The position numbers and the translations under genes are program-made. This document shows positions 37,630 to 45,563 of a stretch of DNA of 64,000 nt, one piece after another. Source of the DNA: an uncultured archaeon (GTDB lineage: Archaea; Asgardarchaeota; Lokiarchaeia; Sigyniarchaeales; SOKP01); assembly GCA_964447495.1 (NCBI GenBank), contig CAYUTF010000003.1, positions 30,684 to 94,683 on the forward strand, in the 5' to 3' direction. Within the stretch, counting starts at the first letter, position 1. The number at the start of each line of letters is the position of its first letter. The notes below the pieces were generated by a model, which was not told the DNA's origin, searched no databases, and saw only the letters and a list, made by a program, of their open reading frames with translations.

Positions 37630-39156
37630 TTAGAATATTTCGCTTATATCTTTATATAAAAGAGCACTATTTTGAATAAACTGATCATGCGTAATAAATA
37701 GACTTTGAAAACTAGGTAGACTCCCTAAAATTGCGGCACCATTAAAAATCGCATAGTGAAGATTTTCAGGTACGAAAAATCTTAGAATTTCATCAATGGA
37801 TTTATAATATCCTGAAAATTCTCTGGCTGGTTTTGTTTTTTTAATTATTTCAGGGGGAACATCAACTAAGCTCGGAGGTTCTAAAGTCTTTCCGCAATAA
37901 GGACAAAATATAGAACTCTCATCCTCAATTGGTTTATTACAATGAGGACAAACTAATTTGCCATCGATTATTTTTAATTTTTTCGGAGTTACTTTTGGCA
38001 TGATGGGCAATTCAGGTAATACCACTCTTCCACCGCATGAGGGACAAAACTCTTTACCGTCAGAGAGATCTACTAAAACACCACAATGGGGACACGTATC
38101 TTGGTTTTTCTTAGACACTTCTAAAGCTTGCATTTTTAATTTTTGACTTGTCATTGAAGTTGTTTCTTTTGGTTTAGGTATTTTTCCCAATTGGGGCAAA
38201 ATTTTGTTTAATTCTGATCTTAACCTTTCCTCAAATCCTGAATATGAGACATTTCCTCCAGAAATTACAATATGTGATAATAGATCACTCCAATGATGAT
38301 TATCAATACCTTGAAGAGACGTTAGGATTGCTTCAGGGATATTCATCATTGTATATCCGAGAAGCTGAGGATTGAATAATACTTCAGGTGCTTCATAAAA
38401 GATATAATGTGGTATCTTAATATTTGAACCATCAGGCATGGCAAAACTAAACGAATCATTAACTTTAGGAGGATGATCGGGATCAATAGCAAAATAACAG
38501 TTTTTTTCTTTTATTTCTTTGATGATTTCATCTACAGCTGACGATTCTATATTAATACCTTCTCTCATTAGCAGATTTTTCAAGTATTGATTGACATCAG
38601 TTCCAGCAAGAGGTAATTTTTGAACGGCTTGATCAACTATCTCTCCATTTATAACAGGGCAAATCCACGTTATCCCATCTCCACTTTCGATCACCAATCC
38701 TGTAGTTAACCCGACACTAAAGATCGAAAGAATAGGTGTAGGGATCATAATTAAGCTCCTAACCCTATGAGTTTCAAATAAAACGCGAGCTATGTATTCT
38801 TTTGTTTCTTTTTGAACAAATGGTTGCTCTGCATATAATACTGGATAATCTGCAAGATTTGGAATTCTTAAAAGTGAATAAAAACAATAATTTATTATAT
38901 CATAATAATCATTCCAATCCATTATTGCCCCACGCTCGATCGGGTATTTAATCTTGAGGACTCCTCGCATTTTTGCCGCATCTGAGCCAATATATGTATT
39001 TCTTGCACTCACATCAACCATTACAGATTTATATTTCTCCTTTCCTGTCATCGTTGGAAATACAAATCGTGGACTTGGTTCACCAGCAAATCCTATCTTA
39101 GTATAAGCTGAACCAATATCTAAAATTACAGGCGTACCGGGGAGAGGGATTGCCAT
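37630..39156 (-). CDS. Actin-family (actin-related) protein with double zinc-ribbon insertion
   Basis: ILDIGSAYTKIGFAGEPSPRFVFP, KYPIERG, GLTTGLVIESGDG, IKEKNCY, PEVLFNP, IVISGG, GAAILGSL; four CxxC inserted near the C-terminus. Confidence 0.93.
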   Translation of the reverse strand: MAIPLPGTPVILDIGSAYTKIGFAGEPSPRFVFPTMTGKEKYKSVMVDVSARNTYIGSDAAKMRGVLKIKYPIERGAIMDWNDYYDIINYCFYSLLRIPNLADYPVLYAEQPFVQKETKEYIARVLFETHRVRSLIMIPTPILSIFSVGLTTGLVIESGDGITWICPVINGEIVDQAVQKLPLAGTDVNQYLKNLLMREGINIESSAVDEIIKEIKEKNCYFAIDPDHPPKVNDSFSFAMPDGSNIKIPHYIFYEAPEVLFNPQLLGYTMMNIPEAILTSLQGIDNHHWSDLLSHIVISGGNVSYSGFEERLRSELNKILPQLGKIPKPKETTSMTSQKLKMQALEVSKKNQDTCPHCGVLVDLSDGKEFCPSCGGRVVLPELPIMPKVTPKKLKIIDGKLVCPHCNKPIEDESSIFCPYCGKTLEPPSLVDVPPEIIKKTKPAREFSGYYKSIDEILRFFVPENLHYAIFNGAAILGSLPSFQSLFITHDQFIQNSALLYKDISEIF

Positions 39157-39752: not shown

Positions 39753-40163
39753 TTACTCAATTTTTAAGGTTTTTTCGAGTCTTTTTTCAAGAATTTTTAA
39801 TTCAGAATGTAAATTATTGAATGTTGTAAGTAAGAAATTTCCCCATTCATTAAGTTTTACCCAACCACCACCACCGCGTCCACCTTTGCCTGTCTCTACA
39901 GGTGAGATCCCGGTTCTAGCCTCTATTCTTTTTAAGATGCTCCAAGCATATTTATATGAATATCCACATTCTTGCGCAGCATGAGATAGAGAGTTTGAAC
40001 CCTTAACATGTTCCGATTTTATGGTTTCTAATAATTTTGCCCAACCTGACCCTAAAATGTTTGCTGATTCTTTATCTTGGAATTCTAACCATATTTTAAT
40101 CCCAAAACCAATTTTAGATTTTAATTTCTCTATATCAACTTTTTTAGTAGATTTTTTCTCCAT
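39753..40163 (-). CDS. ModE-type winged-helix regulator (DNA-binding domain only)
   Basis: LGSGWAKLLETI...SLSHAAQECGYSYKYAW...GGRGGGG..LNEWG. Confidence 0.85.
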   Translation of the reverse strand: MEKKSTKKVDIEKLKSKIGFGIKIWLEFQDKESANILGSGWAKLLETIKSEHVKGSNSLSHAAQECGYSYKYAWSILKRIEARTGISPVETGKGGRGGGGWVKLNEWGNFLLTTFNNLHSELKILEKRLEKTLKIE

Positions 40164-41085: not shown

Positions 41086-41760
41086 TTATAAATTATCTAA
41101 TTCGTCTGGTTCCATGCTGATATGGCTTAATAAATAATCTATCTGTTCCTGTTTCTTGTTTATATTTAATACAGTAGTTAAAGGAATTACATCTCCTTGT
41201 CCAGGAGAGAGCACTATACTACCTGCGCGCAAAACAAAGAATTCAAAGACATCGGGAATCTCTTTTTTTATTCGCAAACTCTTGGTTGGTAAACGCTCAG
41301 CAGAAGAGAAGATACCCTTTTTATGGTAAATTTCATTTCGTTCAATTTTCCAGTAATCAAATCGTGAGCTCAAAATAACAATTCCAAGAATGAACCCAAG
41401 AATGATAACCATTAGAAAATAGAAGTCTGCAGTTAAATTGGGGTTAAAAGCGATTGCGGGCGCTGGTAGTGCAACATTTGGTAATACTAAGAATGCAAGC
41501 AGCAATATAACAACTACGGCAACGAGAACTAACACAAAAAATTTCGTCGAAGAGAAATCAAAGGCCGTTATGAAAAGATTAATAAAGAACATGATCAGCC
41601 AGAAATTTCCATACCAGGCAACTGGTGTTGGAACAAGCAATTGAAGTAGCCATAAAATGAAGGATGTTAGTAGTAAAGGCCAGAAAAATATCACTTTTGG
41701 ATAAGATCTTAAAATAACTTCGGTTATTGGTTTTTTTGGTTTTTGACTCATACTAATCAC
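41086..41760 (-). CDS. Hypothetical membrane protein
   Basis: Four TM segments followed by a soluble beta-rich tail; the real start is probably the internal ATG (MSQKPK). Confidence 0.75.
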   Translation of the reverse strand: MISMSQKPKKPITEVILRSYPKVIFFWPLLLTSFILWLLQLLVPTPVAWYGNFWLIMFFINLFITAFDFSSTKFFVLVLVAVVVILLLAFLVLPNVALPAPAIAFNPNLTADFYFLMVIILGFILGIVILSSRFDYWKIERNEIYHKKGIFSSAERLPTKSLRIKKEIPDVFEFFVLRAGSIVLSPGQGDVIPLTTVLNINKKQEQIDYLLSHISMEPDELDNL

Positions 41761-42821: not shown

Positions 42822-45563
42822 ATGTTTAATCCGGAAGATTTTAGAGAGTTTATTTCACTTATTCCTCTCGTTAACAATTTAAATAAATATCTAAATAAAA
42901 ATAAAGCTGAAAAAATCTCAAAGATAATAGAAGATTTAGAAGAGTTAACACAAAACGAAGAATTAGCAATTCCAATTACGTACATTTTCAGTATTTTAGC
43001 CGAAAAGGATATTAAACTAATCCCAGTCAACTTAATTAAAAAATTAGAACCATTCTTAAATTCGGATGACAAAAAATTACAACTAAATACAATTATCATT
43101 ATCGGATTTTTTATTTTAAATAATCCCCAATCTATTAATTCCTACCTACCAAATTTCATGGAAATTATCACGCAAGATTCTGGCGAGATTTTAGAAAATG
43201 CTTATTTTTTTTTACAACAATTAGTAGATACTAATCCTTTATTATTATGCTCTTATAAAAGTGCTATTTTGGAATGCCTTAAAGCTGAGAAAGATGAAAA
43301 AAATCAACTATCACTATTAAAATTTATAGAATCATGTGATAATTTCGATTTTGATGGTATGTACCAATTTAGAGAGGTAGCATCTGCAATAATTTCTCAA
43401 TATTCTGAGAAAAAAGACAGCATGGTATGCACTATTTTGATTGCCAAAATATCTCAGCTTTTTCCTATAATCCAAGATATTTATAATAAAGATAGTGATT
43501 TTAAAATCCTTAGCAAAGAAATTTCAAACCTTCTCCTAATGAAAAGATATAATTTTACTACAATTGAAAAGGAGAAAGGAATTAAATTAAAAGATTATAT
43601 TCAAGAACGGCGGAAAAGCCCTCTATATGATATAAAGGTATCTTTCTATATTCACAATCCAGATGAGAACTTAATATATTTTTATGAAATCGAAAAAGCG
43701 AGACTTAATACTTTTTTTGAAAGAGCAAATAAAATTTCCGGAGATTTAATTTTGAAAAGTTTTTCACAGATTCTTGAAAATGATTCTGAATTGAAATTAT
43801 TTATGAAAACTTTAGTTAAATTAAACATTATAAAAGGGTATTTTTCAGAATTGAATTATTTTTATCCTTATACATATTTAAGGGAAATTATCCTTAAAGA
43901 CGTTCAAGAGAAAGGTTTAGTCAACTTTGATAATTATAATTATATTCCTCCCGAGTTTTTGCAAAATATTATGCAGGACTTATCAGAAAGTACGAAACAG
44001 GTTTTTCTTATAGGAAAGAATAATAAAATTTTTTATTCTTTAAAAAAAATAAATCAAAATATCAATATTGTAGCAGCAAAAAAGAGTTCAATTGATTTAA
44101 ATTCATATCACGAAAGATTAATTGACGAGGGATTTTTAAAATTAATTGAAAGTATACCAAAAGAATATTTATCACCATTTCATAAGGGGACTCAATATCT
44201 TACTAACTTAGGATTATTAAATGTAAAAAAAGAAATTGAAAATTCCAAAATTATTGGTTATTTTTCACTTTCTGAAGTTTCTTCTAAATTAAAAGTAAAT
44301 AAACTGATACTTTTTGATGTGTTGGGAGAAAATGTAGACATGAGAAGTGGTATTTTTGATGAAAACAGAAATAATTTTTACTATTCTAAATTCTTAAACG
44401 AAAAGATTGAAAAAGTTAACTTAATCAAAGATGAAATCGAAAAGAATGAAACTATCTCACAATTAGCTAAAAAGCTGAATATTAATAAAAATATAATCCT
44501 CTCAAAGTTGGATGAAAATCTTAAATCTATTGGAGAAGAAATTAAGATAAGAGATTTTATTGATATTAACGAATATCTTGATAAAACAGGTATGGATTAT
44601 GATGAATTTTTGCATTTTGTTCGAGATTTAGGTATCCCATACTTTAAAAAAGGAGATCGAATAATCATAAATCAAGATCGAATAAACGAAGCTAAAAATG
44701 ATATAAAATCTATATTAATTAATAAAGCAAAATCAGAAGATTTTATATCATTGGGTGATCTTGATTTAACTTTGAGTATTGTAAAAGAGTTATTACTTGA
44801 ATTACAAGAAGCTGAAAAAATTATAGGTATTTTTTATAATGACGGTGATAAACTAATATTTTATACAAGAAAGGGTATTGAGAACCTAATGTTAGAAAAT
44901 CAACAATTATTTTCGTTTCAAGATTTCTTCTTTGAAAAGCAACTTTCAGAATCTGAATTGCAAATATTACGTTCCATATTAGATGATCTAATAAAAAGCA
45001 AAAGATTAAAAGGTATTTTTGATGAAGAAAATTTAGTTTTTTCAAGCAATGAGGTCCTCTTTGCTCAAAACTATAATTCTACCCTTTCTGAATTTGAAAA
45101 GATAATTAAGAAATATTTTGAATATTTTGAATCTGAATTTCAAAAAATTAAAAAGATTCTAATAAAAAAAGGGGACACAATTCTTCCACAAGAAATTAAA
45201 ATAATTCAAGAAATAATTATCAAAATTAATAGTAATTATGTACATTGGAGAAGTGGATTAGAAGCATTTATTCGTAAAACTAACATACAATTGCTCAAAA
45301 AACAGGGTCTATCCCTTAAGAATTATAAATTCATGATTTTGTTACCCGATAAGAGGAAGGACATAAAATTATTTGAGGAAGATCCTGAAGTAGTTGATCT
45401 CTTAAATGGTTTTAAAGAATGGGTAAGAACTTTCAATAATATTGAATTGAAGTATGGTAATGTCATTTTTTATCAAAAAAGATTAATCACAAACCCTAAT
45501 AATGCTGAGGATAGTAAGAAGCTTGAAATTTTACTTGCTCAACTCAAACTCATAAACAATTGA
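42822..45563 (+). CDS. Large protein: HEAT/ARM-like N-terminus plus tandem winged-helix (PCI/UFL1-like) repeats
   Basis: LIKKLEPFLNSDDKKLQLNTIIIIG is HEAT-like. Repeated WH-like units: LVKLNIIKGYF, FSLSEVSSKLKVN, TISQLAKKLNIN, LIKSKRLKGIFDEENLVF. Confidence 0.6.
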   Translation: MFNPEDFREFISLIPLVNNLNKYLNKNKAEKISKIIEDLEELTQNEELAIPITYIFSILAEKDIKLIPVNLIKKLEPFLNSDDKKLQLNTIIIIGFFILNNPQSINSYLPNFMEIITQDSGEILENAYFFLQQLVDTNPLLLCSYKSAILECLKAEKDEKNQLSLLKFIESCDNFDFDGMYQFREVASAIISQYSEKKDSMVCTILIAKISQLFPIIQDIYNKDSDFKILSKEISNLLLMKRYNFTTIEKEKGIKLKDYIQERRKSPLYDIKVSFYIHNPDENLIYFYEIEKARLNTFFERANKISGDLILKSFSQILENDSELKLFMKTLVKLNIIKGYFSELNYFYPYTYLREIILKDVQEKGLVNFDNYNYIPPEFLQNIMQDLSESTKQVFLIGKNNKIFYSLKKINQNINIVAAKKSSIDLNSYHERLIDEGFLKLIESIPKEYLSPFHKGTQYLTNLGLLNVKKEIENSKIIGYFSLSEVSSKLKVNKLILFDVLGENVDMRSGIFDENRNNFYYSKFLNEKIEKVNLIKDEIEKNETISQLAKKLNINKNIILSKLDENLKSIGEEIKIRDFIDINEYLDKTGMDYDEFLHFVRDLGIPYFKKGDRIIINQDRINEAKNDIKSILINKAKSEDFISLGDLDLTLSIVKELLLELQEAEKIIGIFYNDGDKLIFYTRKGIENLMLENQQLFSFQDFFFEKQLSESELQILRSILDDLIKSKRLKGIFDEENLVFSSNEVLFAQNYNSTLSEFEKIIKKYFEYFESEFQKIKKILIKKGDTILPQEIKIIQEIIIKINSNYVHWRSGLEAFIRKTNIQLLKKQGLSLKNYKFMILLPDKRKDIKLFEEDPEVVDLLNGFKEWVRTFNNIELKYGNVIFYQKRLITNPNNAEDSKKLEILLAQLKLINN

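Follow-up and report, generated by a model that had tools for sequence, protein, structure and literature searches.

The subject of this work is a gene in a 64,000-nucleotide stretch of contig CAYUTF010000003.1, from an uncultured archaeon of the Lokiarchaeia (the whole stretch is called the window below), which encodes an actin-family protein with two predicted zinc ribbons spliced into one of its loops. On the sequence evidence, this insert-bearing protein is real and strongly selected, and is an order-wide variant of the actin fold. We tentatively suggest, with somewhat less than even confidence, that it is an ATP-binding, poorly hydrolysing adaptor that would dock on the ends of Lokiactin filaments and present its ribbons there, as a filament-end cap or anchor. 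An earlier note, made from the letters of this DNA only, had described an actin-family protein with a double zinc-ribbon insert of about 130 residues, and this is confirmed by the open reading frame (ORF), by the Pfam Actin and DZR matches and by a gap in the alignment to sequences of known structure.

The protein is a clear member of the actin family. The Pfam Actin model (PF00022) matches residues 9-323 with an E-value of 1.7e-70 and 238.1 bits, against a cut-off of 27. A phmmer search of the PDB sequences aligns residues 6-326 with actin up to about position 328, and residues 458/460-497 with actin from about position 330. The top match is 9wc4 ('HC1 actin', E 9.3e-72), and every one of the best 60 of 159 matches is an actin or Arp1, with Arp1 scoring similarly to actin (228.7 bits). 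An AlphaFold2 (AF2) model has a mean predicted local distance difference test (pLDDT) score of 77.8 and a predicted template-modelling score of 0.70. When the model was compared with known structures using Foldseek, target-normalised TM-scores of 0.84-0.89 to actin chains were obtained, which identifies the four-subdomain actin fold. Apart from the insert there are no large indels in an alignment with Lokiactin, a plant actin and centractin; the plug and the DNase-binding loop (D-loop) are of actin length, and one subdomain-4 loop is about six residues shorter.

The insert runs, in order, through LPQLGKIP, a Lys-rich linker, ribbon 1, a second linker, ribbon 2 and a last linker in which a short helix is predicted and the motif EFSGYY occurs, and the core then resumes with FFVP (the coordinates of all features are collected in Table 1). 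The ribbon region is recognized by DZR (PF12773; residues 355-422, 33.2 bits against a gathering cut-off of 27.3), with four CxxC knuckles as expected of that family, and its second half by Zn_ribbon_3 (residues 401-424, 35.5 bits against a cut-off of 27). The span given in the earlier note, 37795-38190 or residues 323-454, is nearly identical to the insert as mapped here, and the flanks that it quoted (ELNKILP and LRFFVPENLHYAIFNGAAILGSL) are all present in the translation, as are the four knuckles. In the AF2 model the ribbon-containing blocks reach a pLDDT of about 71-77, while the linkers (residues 332-348, 380-392 and 428-447) fall below 50. We read the two ribbons as predicted zinc-binding modules that a surface loop of the actin fold carries on flexible tethers. 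Searched on its own, the insert found only non-significant ribbon matches among the PDB sequences, the best being Nop10 (E 0.018) and eL43 (E 0.027), and no usable match in the ESM Atlas. A 62-residue antisense ORF (37958-38146, plus strand) lies inside the insert-coding stretch, and nothing marks it as a gene.

We take actin residues K326 and K328 to be solvent-exposed on the outer surface of the actin filament (F-actin), with 328 on the outer face of subdomain 3. Position 328 adjoins residues 322-325, through which we likewise take a subunit to touch subdomain 4 of its neighbour on the barbed-end side. At 328, an insert would project outwards next to the barbed-end face. One PDB title among the Foldseek matches links K326/K328 to tropomyosin. 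The same loop is 4-6 residues longer in another gene of this genome that resembles actin-related proteins (ARPs) and in a named fungal centractin. Placing the ribbons in the subdomain-3 loop of an Asgard (Promethearchaeota/Lokiarchaeia) actin-family paralogue, as was proposed at the outset, is borne out by Pfam, by the PDB alignment and by the taxonomy of the records.

The insert is near-universal in one order of Asgard archaea. We searched 400 Asgard genomes with the whole protein (E <= 1e-74) and found insert-bearing orthologues, that is, frames of about 490-566 residues with matches into the insert, in 142 of the 153 genomes of the window's own order. By family (labelled f1 to f4 here) the counts are 127/134 in f1, 1/1 in f2, 10/14 in f3 and 4/4 in f4; completeness in the seven f1 genomes that lack a match is 61-100%. 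None of the seven genomes from three other families of the same class has a match. Outside the class ten genomes match; the six of these matches that were listed are frames of 375-413 residues that cover only residues 5-326 and that we read as ordinary actins. A search with the insert only likewise gave 127 of 134 in f1, missed the diverged f3 and f4 forms, and elsewhere gave weak ribbon matches in other ORFs. A survey of Asgard actins had been proposed in the earlier note, and its outcome here is this restriction to a single order.

Record titles are consistent with this distribution for the most part, the 80 best loci being mostly labelled as 'Promethearchaeota' or 'Promethearchaeia' metagenome-assembled genomes (MAGs). 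A wider spread is suggested by titles such as 'Hodarchaeota', 'Hermodarchaeota', 'Odinarchaeota' and 'Thorarchaeota' on JBHL... records, but these form one accession series with loci 61-76% identical, and we do not trust the labels given the one-order distribution; such MAGs probably reflect label or binning problems. The same probably holds for a 72% identical orthologue titled 'Candidatus Nanopelagicaceae bacterium' (DATKTW010000100.1). A further observation concerns one genome of the window's family (contamination 7%), in which a 386-residue frame lacking the insert (G196:C37:24158-25117) shares 47% identity with residues 5-328 (E 7.7e-105) and comes nearer to the protein than the Lokiactin matches do. 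This frame may stem from contamination or belong to a relative that has no insert.

Ribbon 1 is present in every orthologue that we read, one-ribbon forms included. The number of ribbons varies: there is one in f4 and in genus g19 of f3, and there are two in f2 and in the remaining f3. In all the diverged f2-f4 forms the insert is preceded by LPxLGP, contains ribbon 1 and is followed by an acidic-aromatic EF or EY motif. In an exact look-up the g19 protein proved to be UYP44711.1, from Ca. Lokiarchaeum ossiferum, and the look-up also returned QEE17409.1 of Promethearchaeum syntrophicum and a cluster from Ca. Harpocratesius repetitus. Cultured strains therefore carry the gene.

Within the family the insert bears the marks of selection. 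A sequence search with residues 320-470 yielded 79 protein clusters, mostly of 498-519 residues, and Pfam Actin together with zinc-ribbon families was found in all of them except P0049, which has Actin only. None of the eight Cys of the insert varies among the 69 aligned relatives. In all 65 full-length members ribbon 1 spans 20 residues and ribbon 2 spans 19, while the linker lengths vary. The mean majority fraction is 0.84 for the core, 0.85 for ribbon 1, 0.69 for ribbon 2 and 0.44-0.50 for the linkers. The stretch around EFSGFY (residues 443-452) stands at 0.75, and kindred EF/EY motifs occur in the f2, f3 and f4 orthologues.

An artefact, whether misassembly, chimera, intein or mobile insertion, is ruled out by the in-frame insert in so many genomes and by its bridged junctions, and we give it a negligible chance. 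The junction at 38178/38179 is bridged by record 12 of run X4 and record 19 of run X5, and that at 37779/37780 by record 5 of run X3, in each case with no indels. The three runs behind these contigs are distinct from the likely source; all are salt-marsh metagenomes and possibly belong to one campaign. The Pfam matches of the whole protein, at E up to 1, include neither an intein nor a Hint family. The earlier note had named the absence of the insert from reads or orthologues as a sign of misassembly; instead, the insert is seen in orthologues and in other assemblies. In metatranscriptome run X23, two 151-nucleotide contigs fall within 37751-38025; neither spans 37780 with 31 letters on each side, and DNA carry-over is possible, so the two contigs do not show that the gene is transcribed.

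Removing the insert does not dissolve the group. In a 78-row actin tree built without the insert columns, the kind of phylogeny that the earlier note had proposed, all 18 rows that bear the insert fall into a single clade, with a support of 100 in the Shimodaira-Hasegawa-like approximate likelihood ratio test (SH-aLRT) and a stem of 0.51. In a second tree of 43 rows, with f2-f4 added and the insert columns dropped (375 columns), the 24 insert-bearing rows stand on one side with a support of 100, and a variant of this set that keeps some insert columns also puts the orthologues in the same clade. Here f4 is sister to the other insert-bearing forms, and g19, with its single ribbon, branches from within the two-ribbon f3 forms. 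These are quick trees from which Arp2-Arp10 were left out, so that orthology to a eukaryotic ARP is still compatible with them, and their deep branches and the neighbours of the clade have no clear placement. Because there is a single clade, with f4 as sister and g19 nested, the insertion happened once and the number of ribbons changed at least twice.

The genome holds four actin-family genes, namely a Lokiactin (442 bits), the zinc-ribbon gene and two further genes. Identity with Lokiactin or conventional actin was rejected, as the zinc-ribbon proteins form a clade of their own (SH-aLRT 100) and the genome has a separate Lokiactin. An Arp1/centractin identity was rejected too, the named centractin P0224 pairing in these quick trees with P0165, apart from the zinc-ribbon clade. 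The named rows of the tree are conventional or divergent eukaryotic actins and one centractin, and none joins the clade. There is no named Arp2 or Arp3 among the 20 proteins named out of the best 150 hits. Among the ARPC subunits only ARPC4 (PF05856) was searched; neither it nor the profilin Pfam family has a match in the genome, and control genomes are equally silent. The claim that no eukaryotic actin or ARP has ribbons at this site held among the hits inspected. We regard the protein as an order-specific paralogue of Lokiactin and an 'ARP' in the loose sense. Two side observations were made among the database actins. Among the best 150 representative hits, many are long proteins (1,000-1,900 residues) whose actin domain lies towards the C-terminus (P0099, P0125, P0126, P0144 and others), and P0203 is a 379-residue 'actin, cytoplasmic 2' in three Nocardia assemblies, either a bacterial actin xenologue or contamination.

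In actin, Gln137, His161 and Asp154 position the attacking water for ATP hydrolysis. The residues are given here in rabbit actin numbering, mapped through an alignment with a plant actin. The nucleotide-binding residues D11, K18, G156, G158, G301 and G302 are invariant in all 69 aligned relatives, so the nucleotide-binding motifs are intact. The counterparts of Gln137 and His161 are replaced throughout (Table 1), and Asp154 has become Glu in 68 of 69. Since the nucleotide-binding residues are kept and the catalytic ones replaced, the protein likely binds ATP and hydrolyses it poorly. Capping, anchoring or decorating filaments is in turn likelier than ordinary actin behaviour, because the residues that split ATP have been lost.

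Which partner might it meet? The protein is 37% identical overall (138/370) to the Lokiactin of its own genome. We compared the two at 30, 36 and 25 positions of the pointed, barbed and lateral faces, taken from F-actin contact lists of the literature, and found 14/30 identical in the pointed-face elements (7 of the 13 in the D-loop among these), 13/36 in the barbed-face elements, or 6/25 without helix 345-355, and 6/25 in the lateral elements. The subdomain-3 contact residues 283-292 are identical at only 2 of 10 positions. The D-loop is also the best-conserved stretch of the family, with a mean majority fraction of 0.90 against 0.84 for the core; disordered in the model yet the most conserved, it has the signature of a binding element.

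It is this face comparison with Lokiactin that leads us to rank end-binding first. The protein would bind ATP, hydrolyse it poorly and hence not behave as a treadmilling polymer. Its pointed-end face, with the Lokiactin-like D-loop and the PDG loop of subdomain 4, would attach to a Lokiactin filament at the barbed end. Further growth would then be hindered by the protein's own barbed face, which is changed in subdomain 3 and has the 133-residue insert beside it, and the ribbons could fasten the filament end to a partner, be it a protein, a membrane site or a nucleic acid. In its fullest form, in which the D-loop plugs the barbed end, the remodelled subdomain 3 and the insert block growth, and the ribbons tie the end to a membrane or protein site, the proposal is somewhat unlikely. 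The 'cap, nucleator or adaptor' of the earlier note fits the lost catalytic residues, the Lokiactin-like D-loop and the diverged barbed face. A low transcript abundance relative to Lokiactin would suit an end-binder, and the available part of a study of L. ossiferum, discussed below, points that way. Several points weigh against end-binding. The comparison of faces involves small numbers of positions, chosen from contact lists and not from a structure; AF2 gives the insert no fixed placement relative to the core; and the D-loop of Lokiactin is three residues longer than that of the zinc-ribbon protein. Two g19 orthologues, which lie outside the 69-row alignment, retain His161 with Gln137 replaced, and so poor hydrolysis may not hold across the clade. 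Finally, the conservation of the barbed-face groove within the family fits a face that still binds something, for example the D-loop of another copy, which suits a homopolymer.

Filaments of its own, or co-polymers, are the reading that we rank second, as rather unlikely. The protein would then build a static filament with ribbons projecting from the outer surface of each subunit. Both faces are conserved within the family (groove 0.94-0.98, D-loop 0.88-0.90, subdomain-4 loops 0.80-0.91), the D-loop and plug keep actin length in the absence of other large indels, and the insert leaves the core at a position that we take to be exposed on F-actin and that a PDB title pairs with tropomyosin. On the other side stand the replaced Gln137 and His161, the closeness of the insert to the 322-325 contact, the changed subdomain-3 contacts, and the Lokiactin transcripts of L. 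ossiferum, which in the part of the source available to us are severalfold above those of the other actin homologues.

Roles away from filament ends and filaments of its own seem less probable still. Eukaryotic nuclear ARPs are tied to remodellers, and by analogy the protein could be a non-cytoskeletal scaffold, an ATP-bound actin fold tied by its ribbons and basic linker to nucleic acid or chromatin. We consider this improbable. Lys makes up 27% of linker 1 in the family of the window, a small gene resembling helix-turn-helix (HTH) proteins lies upstream in most related loci, and the best PDB hits of the insert, Nop10 and eL43, which fall short of significance, are ribbons that bind RNA. However, the charge of the linker is not conserved, being acidic in the f3 and f4 orthologues; the upstream gene has no Pfam match; other double-ribbon proteins in related genomes tag multi-pass membrane proteins rather than DNA binders; and such a role needs neither a conserved D-loop nor a conserved groove. 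Least probable among the biological readings is a nucleator in which a WH2- or VCA-like stretch of the last linker recruits Lokiactin monomers onto the actin-like body. The last linker reads IIKKT here, and KKLLKKT followed by the acidic-aromatic motif in f3, which we presume to resemble WH2/VCA. Against this, at E up to 1 the Pfam WH2 model (PF02205) matches neither this protein nor any of four orthologues, and conservation of the basic motif within the family of the window is poor (majority fraction 0.44 over residues 424-442).

Table 1. Coordinates of the zinc-ribbon actin relative, its parts and its conserved neighbour in the window
Feature	Position	Strand	Basis
Whole gene, zinc-ribbon actin relative, 508 codons plus stop	37630..39156	-	ORF list, translation, Pfam Actin and DZR
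Actin core part 1, residues 1-326 (subdomains 1, 2, 4 and most of 3)	38179..39156	-	Aligned to actin ~8-328; AF2 pLDDT mostly 80-96
D-loop equivalent, residues 37-54, length as in eukaryotic actin	38995..39048	-	pLDDT <50 for residues 37-60; 7/13 identical to own Lokiactin
Thr140 at the position of actin catalytic Gln137	38737..38739	-	T 52, S 16, A 1 of 69; Gln 0/69
Trp164 at the position of actin His161	38665..38667	-	W 65, T 3, F 1 of 69; His 0/69
Insert, residues 327-459 (~133), replacing actin Lys328	37780..38178	-	Gap between two PDB-aligned stretches; alignment with Lokiactin, plant actin and centractin
Zinc ribbon 1, C355-C374, CPHC-12-CPSC, knuckles C355PHC358 and C371PSC374	38035..38094	-	Pfam DZR / Zn_Ribbon_1; Cys invariant; majority fraction 0.85
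Zinc ribbon 2, C403-C421, CPHC-11-CPYC, knuckles C403PHC406 and C418PYC421	37894..37950	-	Pfam Zn_ribbon_3; Cys invariant in 69
Acidic-aromatic motif EFSGYY, residues 446-451, just before core re-entry	37804..37821	-	E446 and F447 >=90% conserved
Actin core part 2, residues 460-508: FFVP strand (= actin IIAP), then C-terminal helices of subdomain 1	37633..37779	-	Aligned to actin ~330-366; pLDDT 85-92
Conserved downstream neighbour, 366-residue protein: N-terminal hydrophobic segment, prenyltransferase-type alpha-alpha toroid, C-terminal membrane helix	36370..37470	-	Pfam PF00432, E 9.1e-19

The neighbourhood of the gene was compared in 14 hand-picked loci, two from the same genus, 11 from other f1 genera and one from f3. 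The toroid membrane protein comes next on the same strand in 13 of the 14, the f3 locus among them. Between the two genes of the window lies an AT-rich gap of 159 nucleotides with a T-run, and the tail of the toroid protein beyond its C-terminal helix is about six residues long. Upstream, the HTH-like gene (136 residues, 39753-40163 on the minus strand of the window; the HTH was assigned by eye) recurs in 12 loci and a CBS-pair gene in 10, while FolD follows the toroid protein in 12. This conservation is mostly plain synteny among relatives. That said, the f3 locus keeps the pair though its wider context differs, which hints at a linkage between actin and toroid genes; a functional tie between the two is a lead only. 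The local base composition is AT-rich, with a GC content of 0.24-0.34. Two further genes of the window are worth recording: a 224-residue gene at 41086-41760 (minus strand) is conserved, has no Pfam match and is duplicated in two loci, and a 913-residue ORF at 42822-45563 (plus strand) has no Pfam match at E 0.001 and recurs as a homologue in 11 of these 14 loci.

The gene family has been in print, apparently without mention of its insert. In the available text of Rodrigues-Oliveira et al. 2022 (PMC9834061), UYP44711.1 is one of three unnamed 'ARPs' placed in a tree and one of four actin homologues followed by quantitative reverse-transcription PCR, with primers given, Lokiactin expression being severalfold higher; the same text does not mention its ribbon insert. 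In the searchable full-text literature the accession UYP44711 occurs in this paper only. Da Cunha et al. 2022, in the portion available, divide 'asgardactins' into five clades and do not mention the insert. No description of zinc ribbons in an Asgard actin was found in the searchable full-text literature, a scope that leaves supplements and subscription journals outside. Database labels of members read 'zinc ribbon domain-containing protein', 'actin-related protein' or 'centractin'. The earlier note had allowed that this might be a common Asgard subfamily already described. It is indeed common, in one order only, and, as far as the text of the source extends, it has been published as an 'ARP' without the insert. 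Public trees thus already include the gene family, whereas its insert appears not to have been described in print.

Asgard actin regulation is a window on the origin of the eukaryotic cytoskeleton, and work so far has dealt with Lokiactin, profilins and gelsolins, not with the 'ARPs'. The paralogue described here is near-universal in its order, two members of which, Ca. L. ossiferum and P. syntrophicum, are cultured strains with imaged filaments. It is also a structural oddity, with a domain spliced into a filament-contact loop in addition to lost catalytic residues. If capping or anchoring is true, archaea evolved, separately from the eukaryotic ARPs, a protein derived from actin that controls filament ends, and the anchor would parallel capping protein, Arp1 minifilaments or Arp2/3 as an independent prokaryotic invention of the order to which the cultured Asgard strains belong. 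If the protein polymerizes, it would form a second, decorated filament system.

The closest known proteins are UYP44711.1 and QEE17409.1, which fall in the same clade as the window protein and share with it the insertion point after LPxLGP, ribbon 1, the acidic-aromatic motif and a replaced Gln137. They are 38-42% identical to it, are 499 and 557 residues long, and have acidic linkers where the window protein has Lys-rich ones. The L. ossiferum protein has one ribbon and keeps His161; that of P. syntrophicum has two ribbons and is labelled 'zinc ribbon domain-containing protein'. With Lokiactin and conventional actin the protein shares the fold, the nucleotide-binding residues, the plug length, the hydrophobic groove and the C-terminal Phe, and it differs from Lokiactin in its 133-residue insert, its replaced Gln137 and His161 and a subdomain-4 loop about six residues shorter. 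Arp1/centractin is the name that the JGI gives to some members, and the centractin loop at the same site is a few residues longer. Eukaryotic ARPs likewise specialize the actin fold by insertions, with Arp5 and Arp8 carrying large ones, whereas ribbons at this site occur in no eukaryotic protein that we inspected.

Zinc modules are found on other proteins of this lineage. Lokiarchaeal two-domain gelsolins carry a (CxxC)2 Zn module on a long charged linker, and in the assay reported this module did not associate with F-actin, according to the available part of Akil et al. 2022 (PMC9433394). The genome studied here has such a two-domain gelsolin (337 residues; locus L131 539-1549, minus strand; contig C40 of G000), which ends in a linker and a (CxxC)2 'Zn' domain. 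The gelsolin module is C-terminal and has about 38 residues between its two knuckles, whereas the ribbons of the actin relative interrupt the actin domain. Homology between the two was considered and rejected, as BLASTP gave a single 16-residue stretch with 5 identities and there is no likeness beyond the CPxCG knuckle. Related genomes also encode proteins of about 350-370 residues (L031 1509-2621, L032 801-1901 and L033 1591-2643) with an N-terminal double ribbon, a basic linker and a multi-pass membrane domain in which a CPBP-protease-like motif was assigned by eye. DZR is in those genomes an N-terminal tag of membrane proteins, and in the present case it is inserted within another domain. 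Tethered zinc modules look like a recurrent way to address cytoskeletal proteins in this lineage.

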